Shown here: positions 3,174 through 18,713 of the stretch, in pieces
How positions within the stretch are numbered: the first letter of the stretch is position 1
How the letters are laid out: every line of letters begins with the position of its first letter
IMG/VR virus record: IMGVR_UViG_3300029080_000072
Length of the DNA: 20,880 nt
Origin: a virus
Lineage: Duplodnaviria; Heunggongvirae; Uroviricota; Caudoviricetes
Strand: one strand, 5' to 3'
The notes under the pieces: model-generated
Database searches by the model: none
Seen by the model: the letters and a program-made list of their open reading frames with translations, nothing else
Told to the model about the DNA's origin: nothing
Translations under genes and position numbers: made by a program

Positions 3174-3635
3174 CTATCTGCACTGCTCATTAATATACTT
3201 CTGGGTTCCTTCCAGTTGTTTTTGCATAGTGATCAGCCTCTCTCTGAGGGTGAAATAATCCCGTTCAGCGGTGTCTGCCAGTCGGGGGGAGGCTGCATTA
3301 TCCACGCCGGAGGCGGTGGTGGCTTCACGCACTGACTGACAGACTGCTTTGATGTGCAACCGACGACGACCAGCGGCAACACCATCACGCAGAGCATCAT
3401 TTTCAGCTTTCGCATTAGCTAACTCCTTCGTGTATTTTTCATCCAGTGCAGCAACATCACGCTGGCGCATCTGCATGTCAGTAATTGCCGCGTTCGCCAG
3501 CTTCAGTTCTCTGGCATTTTTGTCGCGCTGGGCTTTGTAGGTAATGGCGTTATCACGGTAATGATTAACAGCCCATGACAGGCAGACGATGATGCAGATA
3601 ACCAGAGCGGAGATAATCGCGGTTACTCTGTTCAT
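3174..3635 (-). CDS. Rz: Rz i-spanin
   Basis: [55 protein letters not shown]... is lambda Rz-like. ATG 3635 overlaps the endolysin stop (ATGA). Confidence 0.92.
3233..3415 (-). CDS. Rz1: Rz1 o-spanin lipoprotein, embedded in Rz in the +1 frame
   Basis: [60 protein letters not shown] has a lipobox VVGC and a Pro-rich region, as in lambda Rz1. Confidence 0.92.
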
Positions 3636-4129
3636 TGCTGACCCCACAAACAGATTTCACGCTCAATCTCACGACGAGTCATGAGACCTTTCCATTGCTT
3701 ACCGCCAGCATATGTCCAGCGACGTAGCTGATCACATGCGCCTTTGATATCGCCCTGGTTTATTTTGCGAAGAAGCGTCGATGTTCTGAAATTGCCAGCG
3801 CCCACGTTGTAAACGAACGAGTAAAGAGCGCCGCGCGTTGTTTCCGGTATATCAACTTTTATGTACGGGTTAATTTGTCTGGCGACCGTGGCAAGGTCTT
3901 TATTCAGGAGGGCTTTGCATTCTGCTTTGGTATACGTTTTACCGAGCATGATGTCTTTTCCTGTATGCCCGTGACATACAGTCCATACACCAACAATATC
4001 TTTGTATGGTATGTAGCTGACACCTTCCAGACCATCGTTACCACTTGGGCCAGTGATTAACACTGATGCTATAGCAATTGCTCCGCCACCAATAGCAGCA
4101 GCAACGGCTTTTCGTAATGATGGAGGCAT
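3632..4129 (-). CDS. rrrD: Phage-21-type SAR endolysin (T4-lysozyme-like muramidase)
   Basis: 165 aa with an N-terminal signal-anchor-release segment ([20 protein letters not shown]). The E-D-T catalytic region is [24 protein letters not shown]. It matches remembered R21/RrrD. Confidence 0.9.
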
Positions 4130-4344
4130 TATTCACCTCTCGCAGCCTTGCGCTTATCTTCTTTAATCTTGAAATAAAGGTTTGTCAGGTACGTCAGCAG
4201 GCCAAATACCAGGCTACCCAGCACACCTATTGCTGCCCACTGTGAGGGCGTGACTTTATCGAGCAGCTGTAAAAACCAGTAACCGGCACTACCTGCTGAG
4301 GTGCCATAGGCGACACCCGTTGTTAACTTATCCATGGATTTCAT
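4129..4344 (-). CDS. essD: Class II pinholin (S21-type) with dual-start motif MKSM
   Basis: [71 protein letters not shown] has two TM segments. The RBS GAGGTGGGG lies upstream of ATG 4344. Its stop overlaps the endolysin start. The tracked 4389 start is an upstream extension. Confidence 0.85.
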
Positions 4345-8337: not shown

Positions 8338-8967
8338 CTAAAACAAGGATAAACTTTGCCCTGCTCCAGGCGTTGGCTTTACAAATGTTACATCTTTAAT
8401 TCTTTCGCCTAGGAGAAAAAATTTGTCCAAAGATAGCGATGGTATTGTTGCAAACCCATCAGCCCCCTTTTTCCTAGCAACCCCTCTCACGTCCATGAGA
8501 ATTCGCCCTAATACGTTCATACCATAATAGTTACCTTCTGGGTCTTTACTGGCACCCCAGAATTGGTCCTTCTCTGAGTGTTCCACGATGAAATGGTCGC
8601 CTGTACTGTCTAACAGCGCAAAGAACGTATCCCAGTTCTGGCATAATTTTACGCATACACACCACTTCATAATCGAAACTCGATTCTTATCCCATCCTGC
8701 GCGAGTTTTGGATTCAAACGATCTTGCGGTCTGCTTGGCTTCATAGGGGTTTCCTTGAGTAATGATGGCCTTTTGTATATCCGGATAGTCTGGATATCGG
8801 CATGCTTGGTAAAGGATTTCACTTGATTGAATAGGCAACCCATTGATTAACAATGGATATCCTTTAGCCATGTTGGAAAGCCCCCCCCATTTTTCGGTGG
8901 TTTTCCTGAAGGAAACTGTGTTCTGTAGCGGATATAATCTATAGCTCATACCACTCATTATACCCAT
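8338..8967 (-). CDS. NADAR-domain (YbiA/DUF1768-family) protein; predicted N-glycosidic ribosyl/ADP-ribosyl hydrolase
   Basis: 203-209 aa, with in-frame ATGs at 8967, 8958 and 8949. NADAR signature blocks are WGGLSNMA, IQSSEILYQACRYPD, GNPYEAKQTARS, GWDKNRVSIMKW, LLDSTGDHFIVEHSEKDQFWGA and YGMNVLGRILMDVR. It overlaps the upstream ORF's 3' end by 11-29 nt. Confidence 0.75.
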   Translation of the reverse strand: MGIMSGMSYRLYPLQNTVSFRKTTEKWGGLSNMAKGYPLLINGLPIQSSEILYQACRYPDYPDIQKAIITQGNPYEAKQTARSFESKTRAGWDKNRVSIMKWCVCVKLCQNWDTFFALLDSTGDHFIVEHSEKDQFWGASKDPEGNYYGMNVLGRILMDVRGVARKKGADGFATIPSLSLDKFFLLGERIKDVTFVKPTPGAGQSLSLF

Positions 8968-9970
8968 TCCGCTTCATTAGTGGATACCAGCAGTCCAATG
9001 CGGGAGCACCTGTTGGTTCATAATCTCCCCACCAAAAAGCCAGCGGCACATTATTCGGGCAATTTCGATAAGTAAATGTTGTTCCCCCAAAACCCAAACC
9101 GTCAAAAGTAGAAAAACCTAGAGGTTTGAGCACCTCACTAGGGGTTTTCCTGTGCAGCAAGATATTAAAGCCGACTTTAGTAAGGATAGATTCGAAACGA
9201 TCCCTTGAGGCTTCATTTCTAAAACTATCAGAAGAGGCATATCCATCTCTGAATACGCCTTTGTAAAGCTCACACTCCTCGAATTTCTCGGGAGTATCTA
9301 CACTATATTTCCTTGGCCAGAAAACACCTGATTGAGCAGAACGACTTTTTCGGTTTTCAACCTCACGCATACCACCATTCTTCACGTGTACAAAAATGTT
9401 TCTATCCTTAAAAATATATTCTAATCGTCTTTTTATATTATAGTCAGATAACGTATGAGATGAAAAAAAATATACATTGAATTTAATATCTCTTAAATTA
9501 AATTTTAAAACAAAATTACTTATCGATTTGATGGCCTTTTCTCCTGAAAACGACACATCATCAATATATACAAATGTATCAAATTTATTTACTTCATCTT
9601 GAGTTGATGATTCAGTAACGATGTTAAATTTGATCCCTACTGTTTCATAAAGAGATTTAAGCAATTCCTTCTGACTAGAACCTTTTTTTTGAATATCTAA
9701 AAAACCTGCATATCTGAAGAATTTCGCGTTCTTTTCACTTCTTGCAATGGCTTTTATTTTTCGTTGATATTGACTTTCGGATAGGTAACCTGCATTAAGT
9801 AGATAAAGCGTTTCATCTAAGATAAATCGTCTATCCTCCACTGCAAATTGCTTAATCCATTTGCTGACATGTTCAGAGTTCATACCTTCAGCCGGAGGAT
9901 ATTTATAATCGCTCAACTTTTCAGCAATTTTATTGATTACTTTTTCACCAGATAAAATATTCGAGGACAT
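8939..9970 (-). CDS. Hypothetical 343-aa protein with a phosphoribosyltransferase (PRTase)-like core; candidate effector/toxin
   Basis: This long ORF in very AT-rich DNA has an AGGA RBS 6 nt before ATG 9970. Residues 132-145, TFVYIDDVSFSGEK, form a hydrophobic strand, a DD pair and a small-residue loop, like the PRPP-binding loop of type-I PRTases. The N-terminal ~110 aa look helical. The C-terminal W/G-rich region (GFGGTTFTYRNCPNNVPLAFWWGDYEPTGAP) is unassigned. The coding call is confident; the functional call is tentative. Confidence 0.55.
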   Translation of the reverse strand: MSSNILSGEKVINKIAEKLSDYKYPPAEGMNSEHVSKWIKQFAVEDRRFILDETLYLLNAGYLSESQYQRKIKAIARSEKNAKFFRYAGFLDIQKKGSSQKELLKSLYETVGIKFNIVTESSTQDEVNKFDTFVYIDDVSFSGEKAIKSISNFVLKFNLRDIKFNVYFFSSHTLSDYNIKRRLEYIFKDRNIFVHVKNGGMREVENRKSRSAQSGVFWPRKYSVDTPEKFEECELYKGVFRDGYASSDSFRNEASRDRFESILTKVGFNILLHRKTPSEVLKPLGFSTFDGLGFGGTTFTYRNCPNNVPLAFWWGDYEPTGAPALDCWYPLMKRNGYNEWYEL

Positions 9971-10181: not shown

Positions 10182-10766
10182 TTAAGAATAAACATCAGTA
10201 ACTCGGGCCGGGCTTAATGCTACGGTTGGCGAATCACACTTGTTTCCCCATACGTCGAAACCGTGGGAGGATTTACGCGCAAAGAGCTCAATACGTGGAA
10301 GATTACCCAGCAACCGAACCAGCATTTCACGCACGCAGTCTGGTTTACGTGAGTGCTCATGTCGCGGCGAGGTGTAGTGCTGGATGATCGAGGCGTCCTG
10401 CTGTGGTGCCCGCTTACCCTTTACCGCGAAAAGACAATCTTCACGGTTCGCCCGGATCAGGTGTCCCATTCCCATCGCCGATTTGTCAGTTTGCTTCGGG
10501 TAGGTTTTATCCCAAGTGAAACCTTTCATTGTGATCAGGCGAAATCCCCAGGCATCGACGACTTTCATCGCCTCGAACGTTTGAGTTGGCAACCACCACA
10601 TCGCCAGCTGGCAGCTTTCTGCAACCCGCTCCCTTACTGGCAGCCAGCAGATATCCTGCACCGTCATAACCAAGTATTTATGCCCGGTGCCACGCTTACC
10701 AGAATTGCATTTATCCTCGTACGTCCAGGGCGGATCCGCTTAGATCAACGTGTATTTCTTGTTCAT
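10182..10766 (-). pseudogene. MT-A70-family DNA N6-adenine methyltransferase interrupted by an in-frame TAA at codon 9
   Basis: My own translation from ATG 10766 gives MNKKYTLI*ADPPWTYEDKCNSGKRGTGHKYLVMTVQDICWLPV...EHSRKPDCVREMLVRLLGNLPRIELFARKSSHGFDVWGN. The stop (minus-strand TAA, plus 10740..10742) replaces the Tyr of the I-Y-A-DPPW catalytic block. The tracked 163-aa ORF (10182..10673) lacks DPPW. Confidence 0.75.
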
Positions 10767-12467: not shown

Positions 12468-13007
12468 TCATATTGCCCCCAGCATGGTGGTGACCATCGC
12501 CATCAATGGACCAGCCAGATCCGGGTCCACTCGAAACATCGACACAATGCCTTCACTCATCTCCTTCAGTTTCTGGTGGCGTGGTGCGTTGAGAATGACC
12601 GCCTGCTTTGCCTCACAGAGTTCCTTTTCCATTTCAGCCAGCCGAGCCATGAAGCTATCCTGCTCAACCAGGTGGCCGCGATATTCCAGCGGTAGTACCG
12701 CCAGAATTGCCGGGGTCAGTTCACGCACGTTATTTCGGTATTTTTCAGAATCGAATTTGTTATCGAGGAAGCGGAACAGCTTCTGGCGTGCACGGCTGAC
12801 ATCATCAGGGAAATCGATAGTGCCGCCGCCCTGCTCCCGATACTCATTCACAATGAGTGTGGCAACGACATCCTGATTATCTTCAGCCGACCAGGCGCGG
12901 ACGGCATCACGGATTTTTTCGTGGCCTGGCACCTGTTTTGTTTGAGAACGATTTATCACCGCAGTCGGGCTAAATCCGCTAGTCTGTTGGTATGTAAGTG
13001 GTTGCAT
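12468..13007 (-). CDS. YdaT-family protein in the cII position (putative CII functional analogue)
   Basis: 179 aa with an AAGGAG RBS. The segment VATLIVNEYREQGGGTIDFP...LTPAILAVLPLEYRGHL resembles remembered Rac YdaT (...ITEEYLRQGGGELP...LIPAILAILPRELRHRL). It lies between the cro-like gene and O. Confidence 0.6.
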   Translation of the reverse strand: MQPLTYQQTSGFSPTAVINRSQTKQVPGHEKIRDAVRAWSAEDNQDVVATLIVNEYREQGGGTIDFPDDVSRARQKLFRFLDNKFDSEKYRNNVRELTPAILAVLPLEYRGHLVEQDSFMARLAEMEKELCEAKQAVILNAPRHQKLKEMSEGIVSMFRVDPDLAGPLMAMVTTMLGAI

Positions 13008-13076: not shown

Positions 13077-13307
13077 TTAAGCTGCGTTCTTTTCGGTGTG
13101 TGGAAACAACTTCGGAAGATCCGGGCGAATCTGGTATGCCTTCACTACTCCACCAGTAGCCGTAACAATGCTGCCGACATGTTCAGGGGATACCTTTGCT
13201 TTGTTGTGAAGCCACTTATAGACGGCCTGCTGTGAAACTTCGCAGGCAGCGCCCAGTTTCTTTTGTGAACCAACGATATTGATCGCTGTTTTGATAGCTG
13301 GATTCAT
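13077..13307 (-). CDS. Cro-position HTH regulator (YdaS/Cro-like)
   Basis: 76 aa with the HTH-like segment GSQKKLGAACEVSQQAVYKWLHNK and a GGAGG RBS. It is transcribed divergently from cI across the operator region. Confidence 0.7.
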   Translation of the reverse strand: MNPAIKTAINIVGSQKKLGAACEVSQQAVYKWLHNKAKVSPEHVGSIVTATGGVVKAYQIRPDLPKLFPHTEKNAA

Positions 13308-13411: not shown

Positions 13412-14101
13412 ATGAAAACAACACTCTCAGAAAGACTTAAAGAAGCCAGATTAGCGCGAGGCCTTACACAAAAGGCGCTTGGGGATTTGGTCGGGGTTAG
13501 CCAAGCTGCTATTCAGAAAATCGAAACAGGGAAAGCTAACCAAACAACTAAAATCGTGGAGATCGCGAACGCTTTGGGTGTGCGCGCAGAATGGTTATCT
13601 TCTGGCGTTGGAAATATGTCAGACAGTACAGTGCAACCAATACAATCAACTGTCAGCCATTCCAAATACTTTAAGATTGACGTTCTTGATATAGAAGTGA
13701 GTGCCGGGCCGGGAGTCATCAACCGTGAATTTGTAGAAGTTCTACGCTCGGTTGAGTACTCGTTTGACGATGCTCGTCACATGTTCGATGGCAGGAAGGC
13801 GGAAAATATCCGCATCATTAACGTGCGTGGTGACAGCATGTCAGGAACGATCGAACCAGGTGATCTGCTGTTCGTTGATATCACGGTTAAATCTTTCGAC
13901 GGTGATGGTATCTATGCGTTTCTGTACGACGACACAGCCCATGTAAAGCGCCTGCAAATGATGAAAGATAAGCTACTGGTTATCTCTGATAACAAGAGCT
14001 ACTCACCGTGGGACCCGATCGAGAAAGACGAGATGAACCGGGTGTTCATTTTCGGGAAGGTTATTGGCAGTATGCCGCAGACGTATAGGAAACACGGATA
14101 A
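13412..14101 (+). CDS. cI: CI-type prophage repressor (XRE HTH plus S24 LexA-like autopeptidase domain)
   Basis: MKTTLSERLKEARLARGLTQKALGDLVGVSQAAIQKIETGK is the HTH. It also has an Ala-Gly cleavage site (VSAGPG), a Ser nucleophile (RGDSMSG) and a Lys (HVKRL). I chose ATG 13412; the tracked 13346 start lies inside the operators. Confidence 0.9.
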   Translation: MKTTLSERLKEARLARGLTQKALGDLVGVSQAAIQKIETGKANQTTKIVEIANALGVRAEWLSSGVGNMSDSTVQPIQSTVSHSKYFKIDVLDIEVSAGPGVINREFVEVLRSVEYSFDDARHMFDGRKAENIRIINVRGDSMSGTIEPGDLLFVDITVKSFDGDGIYAFLYDDTAHVKRLQMMKDKLLVISDNKSYSPWDPIEKDEMNRVFIFGKVIGSMPQTYRKHG

Positions 14102-14180
14102 TCAGCTGCGTGCTGATGAGGCTTTTGGGTAATGCGCTGAAAGAATTCTTTATAAAAATAACATTACGGGAAAGGCAAAA

Positions 14181-14450
14181 ATGAGTGATAAAAAACTTAT
14201 AAAAAAATCAAATAACTGTGTAGATGCATATGCTGATGCATTTGGATATTCATCTTTTGGGGAAGATGACGATCGCTTAGGCTCCATATCTTTCTTTCAG
14301 CATGTTACAGAATGGGGCGCTGATGGTAGTAATGACACTGAAAACGTAAAGTACAACATTGCAACAATTCGCATGACGGAAGATTTAATGCTTAAACTCG
14401 CTGACTTTATTCGCGATCAGCATGATAGAGCTAAAACCAATAAGTCATAA
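14181..14450 (+). CDS. Hypothetical acidic 89-aa protein, first ORF in the rexA position
   Basis: The ORF has a GGAAAGG RBS-like sequence and starts 80 bp after the cI stop, in AT-richer DNA. I recognise no family. Confidence 0.55.
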   Translation: MSDKKLIKKSNNCVDAYADAFGYSSFGEDDDRLGSISFFQHVTEWGADGSNDTENVKYNIATIRMTEDLMLKLADFIRDQHDRAKTNKS

Positions 14451-14458
14451 TATTAACA

Positions 14459-14899
14459 ATGAAACACGGTTATTACGAAGCTCCAAACCTAACTGAAAAG
14501 CTTGAACAAGCGGCAAGATCATCATCTTTGCACACTGCAGCATTTTCTCAATCAGCTGGTATGTCTGGCGGTAATGTACCTATGCTACAATCAAGTGGTA
14601 GCGGTGGCTCTGGGAGTAATAATGTGCTTGAATCGAAAGTTGCAAAGCTTGAGTCTGATGTGTCCTATATCCGACGTGACGTTGATGAGCTTAAGACAGA
14701 TGTCAAATCTATCGACAGAAACATGATCGCTGTTCTGGAGCGACTCGATTCAATAAAAGATTCACTAGCCAAAAAACCCTCCATCGATGCTGTCGATAGA
14801 AAGATTTCAGACGCAAAGCTTGCGGTATTGCTTGGTGTTCCAGCAATCATCGCTGCAGGAACAGGTCTTTATAAGCTATCAATGTACTTTTTTCTTTAG
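14459..14899 (+). CDS. Hypothetical 146-aa tail-anchored coiled-coil membrane protein (XhlA-like architecture), second ORF in the rexB position
   Basis: It starts 8 nt after the previous stop. It has a Gly/Ser-rich linker (SSGSGGSGSNN) and a heptad-like segment (LESKVAKLESDVSYIRRDVDELKTDVKSIDRNMIAVLERLDSIKDSL). A single C-terminal TM segment (LAVLLGVPAIIAAGTGLYKLSMYFFL) follows. Confidence 0.6.
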   Translation: MKHGYYEAPNLTEKLEQAARSSSLHTAAFSQSAGMSGGNVPMLQSSGSGGSGSNNVLESKVAKLESDVSYIRRDVDELKTDVKSIDRNMIAVLERLDSIKDSLAKKPSIDAVDRKISDAKLAVLLGVPAIIAAGTGLYKLSMYFFL

Positions 14900-14975
14900 T
14901 GCTTAAGAAACTGCTCGCCACCTTGCATTACGCAAAGCGATTTTTCATTCCCTATTACCCTTTCTTATCCATCTA

Positions 14976-15005
14976 AACCCGGCCCCAGTGCCGGGTTTTC
15001 TTTTG
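14976..15005 (+). terminator. Rho-independent terminator ending the cI/rex-position operon (tImm-like)
   Basis: AACCCGGC-CCCAGT-GCCGGGTT followed by TTCTTTTG. Confidence 0.75.
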
Positions 15006-15100
15006 CCTCCCCTCATCACACAAACCGTTCAAAAAACCACCACGACCTCGCTTCAGTTATCGCTATGCGATGCAAGTCACAAAATAAATCCATCTTAAAT

Positions 15101-15170
15101 ACAACCAGTTATATCTAAAACAACCAATAAAACAACTTTTGTTGTTGCCGATAAAACAACTATAGTTTTA
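15101..15170 (+). promoter_or_regulatory. OL/PL region
   Basis: There are clustered ACAAC/GTTGT operator-like elements. They include the palindrome AACAACTTTTGTTGTT (15131..15146) and AAAACAACTATAGTTTT (15153..15169). The latter is the reverse complement of the OR 17-mer with one mismatch. Candidate PL: TTGTTG (15139..15144), 16 nt, TATAGT (15161..15166). Confidence 0.55.
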
Positions 15171-15450
15171 AATGAATTCATCGCAACAACACAACGATAC
15201 GGCAATCACCTGATTCACCGTTGCGATGACCGCTTAGATCCGCAGCTTGAATTTCAGCAGGCTCCGGGGAGTGCGAGGGGTGAAGCGGACGCGTGAACGT
15301 CGGTGTGACCAGCTGAAATCAACTCAACACTTCATACCTCAGTCGCTTCAACGAGGCGACTTAGTTATGACAACCGGCGGCCATCCACCGCCTGAATACG
15401 CGCAGAAGTCTCTATATGTTCAGCAGCCCAGCTTACGGGCAGGAGTTTTT

Positions 15451-15657
15451 ATGGTTCATCAACATTACGGAACGCAGACCGTTAATCGAGGTGCGGTCAT
15501 GCCAGGAATGCTGGTCAAACACAAAGATGGTACCTGGACTGCATCAGCTAATTTACGCGGACGGCTATATCTGCATCGCGGCATCGAGCGCACTTATACC
15601 CGTGATTTGCTCGTGGAAGTTTTTCTCGACGGACGCGGTAACGGCCTGAATCACTAA
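15451..15657 (+). CDS. Small hypothetical protein in the kil/cIII position, immediately upstream of gam
   Basis: ATG 15451 has a strong AGGAG RBS 5 nt upstream and gives 68 aa: [68 protein letters not shown]. An alternative in-frame ATG lies at 15367. Its position and size suggest a Kil/KilR-type host-killing peptide, but I cannot confirm the family. Confidence 0.5.
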
Positions 15658-17497: not shown

Positions 17498-17652
17498 CGC
17501 ATCCTCACGATAATATCCGGGTAGGCGCGATCACTTTCGTCTACTCCATTACAAAGCGAGGCTGGGTATTTCCCGGCCTTTCTGTTATCAGAAATCCACT
17601 GAAAGCACAGCGGCTGGCTGAGAAGATAAATAATAAACAGGAGGATATATGA
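17494..17652 (+). CDS. 52-aa ORF, lambda orf60a-like with a replaced C-terminus (below the track's cutoff)
   Basis: My own translation gives [55 protein letters not shown] 17494 overlaps the exo stop (ATGA) and its stop overlaps the next ATG (ATATGA). The N-terminal ~45 aa match my memory of lambda orf60a, which follows exo. Confidence 0.5.
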
Positions 17653-18713
17653 GTCAGGTTGGTAATCATTCATTCGAATTTCCGGCATCGCAAGGTGTAC
17701 AGGGTGGTACTGTTACACTCTTCCTTACCATACCAGGAAGATCGCTGGCTCGTTTCCTCGCTTCAGATAATTACGGCCATACACTGGAACGCTCTCAGCG
17801 AGAAATTAATCCAAATCGAGTACGAAAATTTTTAAATTATCTCACTAACGCAGACTCAAGAAATGAGTCTTTTATCATTCCCCCTCTCGTAGGTAACTGT
17901 GATTCGAATATAGAATTTGTACCGTTTGGCAACACAAATGTTGGTATAGCCAGAATTCCCCTCGACGCCGAAATAAAACTTTTTGATGGCCAACATCGTG
18001 CAGCTGGCATTGAGATATTTTGCCGAAGTTCCCCATCAACGCTCATGGTTCCCATGATGCTTACAATGAATCTGCCGCTAAAAACCCGGCAGCAGTTCTT
18101 TTCGGACATAAATAACAACGTTTCTAAGCCATCAGCGACCATCAATATGGCGTATAACGGCCGGGATGATATTGCTCAGGGAATGATATCCTTCCTGACC
18201 CAACATACTGTATTTGCCGATATAACCGATTTTGAACACAACGTAGTGCCATTAAAAAGTAATATGTGGGTGAGTTTCAAGGCACTCACTGATGCAACGT
18301 CAAAGTTTGCTAGGAACGGCAATCAACAACTTGAAATGGGATATATAGAATCTGTCTGGGAGGCATGGATTACACTAACTCAGATTGACTCAATCCGACA
18401 TGGTGTACACCACGCTACGTACAAGCGCGATTATATTCAGTTCCATGGAGTAATGATTAACGCTTTCGGTTTTGCGGTTCAACAGATGATGGTTAATCAT
18501 TCCATCGCAGAAATAACTTCTATGATCGAAAAACTCTGTGCAACTACCAGCTCTGCAGAAAGAGAGGATTTTTTTCTGATGGATAACTGGGCGGGGATCT
18601 GCACGAAAGCCAGCCAGGAAAAACTATCGGTTATTGCCAATGTGGCAGCGCAGAAAGCAGCAGCAAACAGACTGATACAAGCTTTTACCAAAGGAAGTCT
18701 GGAAACAACTTAA
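17649..18713 (+). CDS. DGQHR-domain protein (DndB/ParB-Srx-like superfamily), stand-alone
   Basis: 354 aa with the literal DGQHR motif at residues 113-117 (KLFDGQHRAAGIE, nt 17985..17999). Upstream is QREINPNRVRKF and downstream is FFSDINNNVSKPS, as in DndB-type proteins. It has a helical C-terminal half, AGGAG RBS and AT-richer composition than bet/exo. Confidence 0.8.
   Translation: MSQVGNHSFEFPASQGVQGGTVTLFLTIPGRSLARFLASDNYGHTLERSQREINPNRVRKFLNYLTNADSRNESFIIPPLVGNCDSNIEFVPFGNTNVGIARIPLDAEIKLFDGQHRAAGIEIFCRSSPSTLMVPMMLTMNLPLKTRQQFFSDINNNVSKPSATINMAYNGRDDIAQGMISFLTQHTVFADITDFEHNVVPLKSNMWVSFKALTDATSKFARNGNQQLEMGYIESVWEAWITLTQIDSIRHGVHHATYKRDYIQFHGVMINAFGFAVQQMMVNHSIAEITSMIEKLCATTSSAEREDFFLMDNWAGICTKASQEKLSVIANVAAQKAAANRLIQAFTKGSLETT

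Follow-up and report, generated by a model that had tools for sequence, protein, structure and literature searches.

A two-gene cassette between the prophage repressor and OL/PL: a candidate exclusion module in the position of rexA and rexB

What do two small genes do between a prophage repressor gene and the leftward operator and promoter (OL/PL), the position held in lambda by rexA and rexB? The question is raised by a 20,880-nucleotide (nt) stretch of Caudoviricetes DNA, IMG/VR record IMGVR_UViG_3300029080_000072 (hereafter the window, meaning the whole stretch), in which a pair of open reading frames (ORFs), orfA and orfB, follows a cI-like repressor gene. The reading that we favor, tentatively and at somewhat less than an even chance, is that the pair forms an exclusion or abortive-infection module co-transcribed with the repressor, in which OrfA would act as sensor or regulator and OrfB as a holin-like membrane effector, i.e., a functional analogue of RexAB without homology to it. 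In its favor are the recurrence of the family in the slots of rexAB, orf59a/sieA, and gp15, the operon layout, a variable partner on a conserved membrane module, the membrane topology, the XhlA-like relatives, the maintenance of alleles, and the location in a hotspot between cI and N. An anti-phage role, an exclusion phenotype, and the division into sensor and effector are suggested from position and architecture.

The repressor-cassette unit and its genomic slots

The unit and its borders are made up as follows, with lengths in amino acids (aa):

13077-13307, minus strand: cro-like gene, divergent from the repressor (annotation)
13412..14101, plus strand: cI-like prophage repressor (Pfam Peptidase_S24, 1.5e-18; HTH_3, 6.5e-13; RefSeq WP_000858975.1, ‘S24 family peptidase’), presumed first gene of the cassette-bearing lysogenic operon
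14102..14180, plus strand: 79-nt spacer from the repressor stop to orfA, with a GGAAAGG Shine-Dalgarno-like motif ~6 nt before the orfA ATG, read from the sequence
14181..14450, plus strand: orfA, 89 aa (RefSeq hypothetical protein WP_001280883.1; phrog_4231)
14459..14899, plus strand: orfB, 146 aa (RefSeq hypothetical protein WP_023140623.1; phrog_3556)
14975..15005, plus strand: intrinsic terminator closing the repressor-orfA-orfB unit (9-bp stem at 14975-14998 with six G-C pairs, then a T-run)
15099..15190, plus strand: putative OL/PL region, end of the slot (operator half-site cluster and -10-like TATAGT; conserved with the immunity region of locus L073)

ORF coordinates and a terminator scan agree with an earlier note on this DNA, which had described two ORFs of 89 and 146 aa between the cI stop at 14101 and a strong terminator. 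The 8-nt gap that it gave (14451-14458) and its statement that the cassette DNA is richer in AT than cI (GC content 0.37-0.42 vs. 0.46-0.47) are likewise borne out, and its placement of OL/PL just after the cassette is supported by the distribution of AWACAACY half-sites, 11 of which occur window-wide (3.1 expected by chance), with four of the 11 inside 15099-15161. From this cluster and the -10-like element we infer the promoter at 15099..15190. An inverted-repeat search and a spaced palindrome pattern were also tried as operator definitions, and neither worked; it was the simple half-site pattern that clustered at OL. A weak sigma-70-like site (14422-14451, plus strand; ATGATA-18-CATAAT), placed where orfA ends and shortly before orfB begins, brings to mind pLIT, which lambda has inside rexA; it was rejected as evidence, as the region holds fewer promoter-like hits than shuffled sequence.

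Both genes are real and under purifying selection, because dN/dS (the ratio of nonsynonymous to synonymous divergence, dN and dS) against relatives from other genera is low (0.06-0.16 for orfA and 0.19-0.41 for orfB) at synonymous sites near saturation. A scan from the cI stop to orfA (14102..14180) found no terminator-like hairpin, and across the family the repressor-partner gap is 7-187 nt after cI-like genes and becomes an overlap of 4-23 nt after Mnt-like genes. With gaps this short or overlapping and no intervening terminator, co-transcription of the pair with the repressor in lysogens can be inferred with good reason, and expression would be driven from PRM. Among prophage promoters, that of cI is one of the most active, and the interval from cI to N is known as a hotspot of abortive-infection genes, e.g., RexAB and BstA (PMC8585504).

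In the PHROGs collection, OrfA belongs to phrog_4231 and OrfB to phrog_3556 (4e-54), both families of unknown function. The cassette family, as defined here, joins PHROGs 3556/6136 with 4231/5893/4293: a tail-anchored protein with a Gly-rich linker and an LExRVAKLESDV signature, preceded immediately by a small, coupled cytoplasmic partner on the same strand. OrfB has the former features (phrog_3556 and alignments) and orfA, 8 nt upstream, is such a partner. We fetched 144 loci encoding OrfB-like proteins and were able to call the OrfB-like ORF in 138; almost all occurrences of the family are in prophages.

In 59 of the 138 loci, the second gene upstream, on the same strand, encodes a cI-like or helix-turn-helix repressor. 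The window pair falls in this class, lying downstream of cI, on its strand, between cI and OL/PL, and the same slot is occupied in phage epsilon34, where the order is repressor gp46, gp45, gp44, OL/PL; the 2008 genome paper already described 44 and 45 as ‘like rexA and rexB’, without database matches (PMC2629481). Nothing shows this slot more directly than two phage contigs whose immunity is truly that of lambda, L130 and L137, the cI of L130 differing from that of lambda at only a handful of residues. Their DNA is 93-98% identical to lambda through cro-OR-cI up to 4 nt before the cI stop, and the match resumes at the rexB stop and continues through OL. Between these lambda-like flanks, 812 bp encode a partner and an OrfB-like gene in place of rexA-rexB. 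A sister cassette thus replaces rexA-rexB exactly in these contigs, and the assignment of the window pair to the rexA/rexB slot in the earlier note is right.

Two further kinds of slot recur. Behind an Mnt-like repressor, the cassette is found in 11 loci of P22-like prophages; in UPF_BP1 and a Serratia prophage it is the orfA+orfB pair itself that follows Mnt and converges on gene 16, which is the P22 orf59a/sieA position (gene 16-gene 9, in the ant moron downstream of mnt), whereas the window copy follows cI. Copies in tail modules, verified with Pfam, are flanked by tape measure and gpM in L056, by baseplate hub and gpV in L031, and by DUF6246 and tape measure in L114. The DUF6246/tape-measure slot also holds the Raoultella orfA copy, on the opposite strand, and this interval, from tail chaperone to tape measure, is the slot of the HK97 exclusion moron gp15. 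Small proteins with signal-peptide or lipoprotein-like N-termini adjoin the cassette in two of the tail modules (L114, 6371-6703; L031, 5027-5386), as if more than one moron had accumulated at each of these insertion points.

These positions bring in the main alternative, a block of DNA entry in the manner of SieA or HK97 gp15, by which OrfB together with OrfA would disturb the ejection-protein or tape-measure conduit, or a host inner-membrane factor, and the infected cell would survive. SieA stops DNA transport across the inner membrane, and mutations in gp16 and gp20 escape it (PMC10883804), so a copy beside gene 16 in the orf59a/sieA position, and others beside tape-measure genes in the exact gp15 slot, speak for such a block. 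On the other hand, the commonest slot, after cI, gives no hint of entry, and BLASTP found no similarity of the pair to HK97 gp15 and, between OrfB and P22 SieA, a best E of 1.7. Together with the points on topology and partners given below, this leads us to regard an entry block as unlikely.

A common membrane module and its exchangeable partners

OrfB can be divided into four segments, with a joint near the start of the third:

14459..14554, plus strand: residues 1-32, N-terminal helix segment, varying in step with the partner family and proposed as the adaptor on which the partner docks
14555..14617, plus strand: residues 33-53, Gly/Ser-rich flexible linker (from the sequence; predicted local distance difference test, pLDDT, <50 over 22-52; Gly-rich run in the family consensus)
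14618..14773, plus strand: residues 54-105, coiled coil with the signature (M)LExRVAKLESDVSYIRRDVDELK (modeled helix 54-105)
14620..14661, plus strand: mosaic joint inside orfB (blastn)
14813..14869, plus strand: residues 119-137, single C-terminal transmembrane helix AKLAVLLGVPAIIAAGTGL (Kyte-Doolittle 19-mer 1.80; nine residues after it)

Hydropathy, heptads, and an AlphaFold2 model agree with the Gly/Ser linker, heptad-like segment, and single C-terminal transmembrane helix first noticed in this protein. The model (pLDDT 57) has helices at 11-32, 54-105, and 110-145, with a disordered Gly/Ser stretch at 33-53 and a KKPS break before the last helix. Hydrophobic residues occupy 14 of the 18 heptad a/d positions between residues 55 and 118, and A62, E65, and I71 of the coiled coil are invariant in 33 diverse members.

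For counts of topology and modularity, the loci were dereplicated to 55. One C-terminal hydrophobic segment is present in 50 of these OrfB relatives, none has an N-terminal one, and the partners are without membrane segments. Lysine and arginine average 3.2 before the membrane segment vs. 1.3 after it, and 4-17 residues follow. The position of the segment and this charge bias indicate that OrfB is probably tail-anchored in the inner membrane, with its N-terminus and bulk in the cytoplasm, and we propose it as the membrane effector. So short a tail leaves almost nothing in the periplasm, which tells against a block of DNA entry.

OrfA is acidic (isoelectric point 4.98, net charge -4.3), has no hydrophobic segment by hydropathy, and is modeled by AlphaFold2 (pLDDT 78) as three long β-strands followed by a C-terminal helix; it is proposed to be the cytoplasmic partner, a sensor or regulator, of OrfB. 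Its family is tiny (15 clusters at 90% identity), and OrfB homologues make up 108 clusters in Enterobacterales. An exhaustive HMMER search of 1.84 billion proteins returned 10 OrfA representatives, the eight best of which are stand-alone proteins of 92-99 aa, and no informative fusions; a sequence search of the PDB with profiles of orfA and of the 140-aa partner gave nothing significant.

A small acidic protein encoded first and a membrane protein second, closely coupled (8 nt apart in the window and -50 to +3 nt in relatives) and retained in a defective prophage, would also suit a toxin-antitoxin-like addiction module, with OrfB as membrane toxin and OrfA as labile antitoxin acting without any sensing of phage. 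Lysogeny is, however, already stabilized by the repressor, and addiction explains neither the recurrence in exclusion slots nor the variety of partners on one effector. Since many toxin-antitoxin pairs act in defense, this idea also overlaps with the exclusion reading; as a separate explanation it seems distinctly improbable.

A small gene on the same strand precedes the OrfB-like gene almost always, and in 102 of the 138 loci it comes from one of three families:

Beta-rich partner, phrog_5893: ~140 aa (140-156 in the epsilon34-type family), 70 loci
Zinc-ribbon partner, phrog_4293: ~120 aa, CxxC...CxxC, 23 loci
orfA-type partner, phrog_4231: ~90 aa, nine loci, the rarest

That the three might be divergent homologues was considered and rejected (hhalign probability <1%), and for a passive block of DNA entry a soluble cytoplasmic partner from three unrelated families is hard to explain.

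Alignments with blastn place the border between the variable and the common part inside orfB. Loci with other partners match the window only from ~14620-14625 on (L073, L075, and L003) or from ~14640 (L068 and L072). Conversely, the UPF_BP1 pair, which has the same partner and another C-terminal half, matches the window only up to 14661 (L002, 14155-14661). These matches put a recombination joint where the coiled coil begins. Among the dereplicated loci, no cluster of OrfB N-termini is common to two partner families; each of the two main C-terminal types, in contrast, is seen with every partner family. Companions of orfA carry only the MKHDYYE..LEQAA.SSSL-type N-terminus or similarly built Ser-rich N-termini, and in the largest partner family the identity of the partner correlates with that of the OrfB N-terminus (rho 0.33), not the C-terminus (rho -0.06). 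Even next to distant orfA relatives, in Serratia and Raoultella, the downstream protein, though undetectable by sequence, has a Ser/Gly-rich linker, a coiled coil, and a C-terminal membrane helix. This pattern fits a partner-specific N-terminal docking segment, joined by the linker to a common membrane module. The Raoultella gene after the orfA homologue is 62 aa long in one assembly and 126 aa in another (L152, 4270-4670; L154, 3207-3587) and contains a C-run, ‘catccccccc’; the difference may be due to a frameshift, an assembly error, or phase variation.

Searches of Pfam, NCBIfam, and PADLOC found no family above threshold for either protein. BLASTP gave a best E of 5.1 for OrfA against lambda RexA and no alignment of OrfB with RexB; megablast of the cassette against 50,697 phage records gave no match, and UPF_BP1 was the only full-length relative by tblastn. 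The admission in the earlier note that neither protein was recognized was therefore fair, in that no curated family or paper names either one, although the related epsilon34 gp45/gp44 had been flagged in 2008. Generic coiled-coil matches of OrfB in Pfam (FlaC_arch, LPP, and SlyX) all fell below threshold and were discarded.

A further suggestion, that OrfB resembles XhlA-type phage membrane proteins, holds for architecture, as OrfB has a coiled coil and a single C-terminal membrane helix, and fails for membership in Pfam XhlA (PF10779), where it scores 11.5 bits (E 0.34) against a cut-off of 34.7. Some relatives match OrfB in the N-terminal half, end in ...FGSYVSKILDALNGLVLK with an XhlA-like C-terminus, and carry the NCBI name ‘hemolysin XhlA’. 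The likeness is a real but distant, architectural relationship in which membership is not demonstrable. Architecture, sub-threshold matches, and these names could also mean that the pair assists the phage's own lysis or its timing as a second holin-like protein, since XhlA and SPP1 gp24.1 cooperate with a canonical holin (PMC6316719). Whereas XhlA belongs to a lysis cassette with an XhlB-type holin and an endolysin, orfB lies in the immunity region, outside the window's lysis cassette essD-rrrD-rzpD (3174-4344), and a terminator separates the pair from PL; in relatives it is found in repressor operons or as a moron, sometimes on the strand opposite the late genes. We consider a role in the phage's own lysis very improbable.

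Alleles in E. coli and the surrounding prophage

The orfA+orfB pair is present in 201 of 5426 complete E. coli genomes, as a single chromosomal copy, and both genes are annotated as intact hypothetical proteins in every listed E. coli record. Carriers fall into 50 genomes with at least 95% identity and 151 with ~81%. How these two forms relate is best seen in E. coli 2014C-3051 (L158, Shiga-toxin-type), whose repressor and cro proteins have the same accessions as those of the window and whose flanks are 97-100% identical. Over ~14100-14800, identity drops to 65-87%, and it returns to 98% over the membrane-helix codons, so that the allelic island is sharply bounded, with its 3' edge just before those codons. 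Divergence between L158 and the window is distributed as follows:

orfA: dS 1.68, dN/dS 0.08
OrfB coiled coil: dS 1.53, dN/dS 0.09
OrfB N-terminus and linker: dS 0.50, dN/dS 0.52
cI: dS 0.15, dN/dS 0
gam: dS 0.02, dN/dS 0.48
bet: dS 0.05, dN/dS 0.03

Cassette alleles with a dS of 1.5-1.7 are thus set inside flanks with a dS of 0.02-0.15, and they are two old alleles, which recombination has exchanged and which have stayed functional. That the E. coli alleles might be under diversifying selection was considered and rejected (dN/dS 0.08-0.24 at a dS of 1.5-1.7, only the OrfB N-terminus and linker being relaxed, at 0.52). The pair is maintained in a decaying prophage and exchanged like a defense locus.

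The E. coli E94 chromosome holds a stretch identical to the window, a defective lambdoid prophage by its annotated genes, and strain TD225-C4 has a near-identical immunity region adjoining icd. The late region is DLP12-like (nohD, essD-rrrD-rzpD, quuD, rusA) and the early region lambda-like (P, an O-like gene, a YdaT-domain gene, cro-like, cI-like, kil, gam, bet, exo, xis, int). Tail-fiber, lom, and terminase genes are truncated, lom and terminase being fused near 1117-1138 (within 1-1380), and the repressor and cassette are intact; an MT-A70 methyltransferase pseudogene with an internal stop lies at 10182-10766 (minus strand).

Other genes of the window deserve mention. Between the nin-region genes and replication gene P lies an overlapping minus-strand pair, one gene for a NADAR-family protein (8338-8949) and one for a phosphoribosyltransferase-like protein (8939-9970), which could be another defense or counter-defense moron. 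A YdaT-toxin-domain protein (12468-13007, minus strand) occupies the position of lambda cII, downstream of the cro-like gene, and several related immunity regions retain this same gene, of 179-180 aa. Between the putative OL/PL (15099-15190) and kil (15451-15657), neither the annotation nor the sequence shows an N-like antiterminator gene, the sole ORF in this interval being a 136-aa, TTG-start reading frame (15247-15657) that extends kil in frame. In the PL operon, after exo and a DUF1317 gene and upstream of a TraR/DksA-like gene, lies a 354-aa DGQHR-domain protein (17649-18713, plus strand), an unusual cargo for that place. Annotation further assigns iss/bor and an ompC-like porin to the window.

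Such diverse cargo in moron slots, including iss/bor and the porin here, would be in keeping with another alternative, that the pair is a lysogenic-conversion or host-physiology module, a coiled-coil scaffold tethered to the membrane that, with its partner, changes traits of the lysogen such as envelope, stress, or virulence. PADLOC found no defense-family signature, and the architecture of OrfB is generally like that of small tail-anchored stress proteins, a comparison made here through Pfam. Against such a role, the pair replaces rexAB and sieA-region genes precisely and recurs in the gp15 slot, its family hardly leaves prophages, and one would sooner expect of conflict genes that partners are swapped and that ancient alleles sit in near-identical flanks. 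We hold a host-physiology role to be improbable.

Proposed action and comparison with known systems

If the exclusion reading is correct, OrfA would bind the N-terminal adaptor of OrfB and either keep OrfB inactive or serve as the infection sensor. A superinfecting phage would then perturb OrfA, and an OrfB oligomer, held together by the coiled coil, would damage or permeabilize the inner membrane, so that the infection is aborted or excluded. Contact of OrfA with the OrfB N-terminus is suggested by the co-variation, and membrane damage as the output by analogy. OrfB may work like a holin, or together with one, as XhlA-type proteins do. XhlA/gp24.1 proteins are harmless alone and lethal together with a holin (PMC6316719), and OrfB might therefore act on or with the holin of the invader.

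Several observations weigh against the exclusion reading. PADLOC-DB v2.0.0 (2023 models) gave 0 matches for OrfA and coiled-coil noise only for OrfB (E at least 0.006), and literature searches on the pair, its PHROGs, and XhlA in defense found no characterization; because of both, the anti-phage role is argued from position. XhlA similarity stays below threshold in the family, with an E of 0.01 or less in three of 33 OrfB-family members (best 1.9e-5), and the OrfB structure model is of low confidence. In the zinc-ribbon family, partner identity tracks the OrfB C-terminus, not the N-terminus, and, as the 5' end of orfB adjoins the partner gene, the N-terminus may go with the partner simply because the two are neighbors on the DNA. 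Finally, the slots beside gene 16 or a tape-measure gene fit an entry-blocking protein equally well.

A wider version of the exclusion reading can be formulated, which we regard as possible but doubtful. The pair would represent a widespread, unrecognized class of prophage defense, in which a common tail-anchored, holin-like coiled-coil effector is armed by sensors of three unrelated folds, each docking on a matching N-terminal adaptor. Such cassettes would be allelic alternatives to RexAB, SieA, and gp15, and could kill by prematurely triggering or mimicking the holin of the invader.

Were the exclusion reading true, ~4% of complete E. coli genomes would carry an unrecognized exclusion system in one of the most strongly transcribed prophage operons, as would many prophages of Salmonella, Klebsiella, Enterobacter, Serratia, Pantoea, Photorhabdus, and Xenorhabdus; Gram-negative XhlA-like proteins would gain a role outside lysis, and the host range of therapeutic and typing phages would be affected by such cassettes. 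The family would also be a small, genetically tractable model of sensor-effector modularity, and the natural lambda variants with a cassette in place of rexAB allow a direct comparison with the poorly understood Rex system; lysogens with lambda immunity of this kind occur in nature, e.g., E. coli MS15236.

Among known prophage systems, BstA also lies beside the repressor, as defense cargo, but is a single, DNA-associated, unrelated protein. The gp30/31 pairs of mycobacteriophages Sbash and Butters, in the published accounts consulted, combine a cytoplasmic and a membrane protein beside the repressor and are unrelated to the cassette; this comparison was made through the literature. P22 SieA and HK97 gp15 share the mnt-gene 16 and tail chaperone-tape measure slots and are inner-membrane proteins expressed from the prophage, as the pair would be, but they act alone and have no homology to OrfB, which is always accompanied by a soluble partner. 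XhlA and SPP1 gp24.1 (PF10779) are small and, like OrfB, combine a coiled coil, N-terminal in their case, with one membrane helix at the C-terminus; OrfB differs in its extra N-terminal adaptor and linker, its other membrane helix (LLGVPAIIAxGTG), and its Gram-negative hosts. Closest is epsilon34 gp45/gp44, of the same cassette family and in the same post-repressor slot, with a phrog_5893-type partner of 140-156 aa and another OrfB N-terminus and C-terminus.

With lambda RexA/RexB the pair shares two genes directly after cI and before OL/PL, closed by a terminator, the soluble protein first and the membrane protein second, and also the working model of a cytoplasmic sensor and a membrane effector. 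RexAB shuts out T4 rII and other phages by way of a loss of membrane potential, and RexB is a four-helix polytopic membrane protein. OrfB, in contrast, has one C-terminal helix and a coiled coil; OrfA has 89 aa vs. 279 for RexA; there is no sequence similarity; and the cassette has an exchangeable partner from three unrelated families and is found in Mnt and tail-module slots too. The logic of the slot is textbook knowledge, and notice of a sister pair dates from 2008. Three points appear to be new: the recognition that a single widespread family combines a common tail-anchored effector with swappable partners of three unrelated kinds, the exact replacement of rexAB by this family in phages with lambda immunity, and its recurrence in three different exclusion slots.

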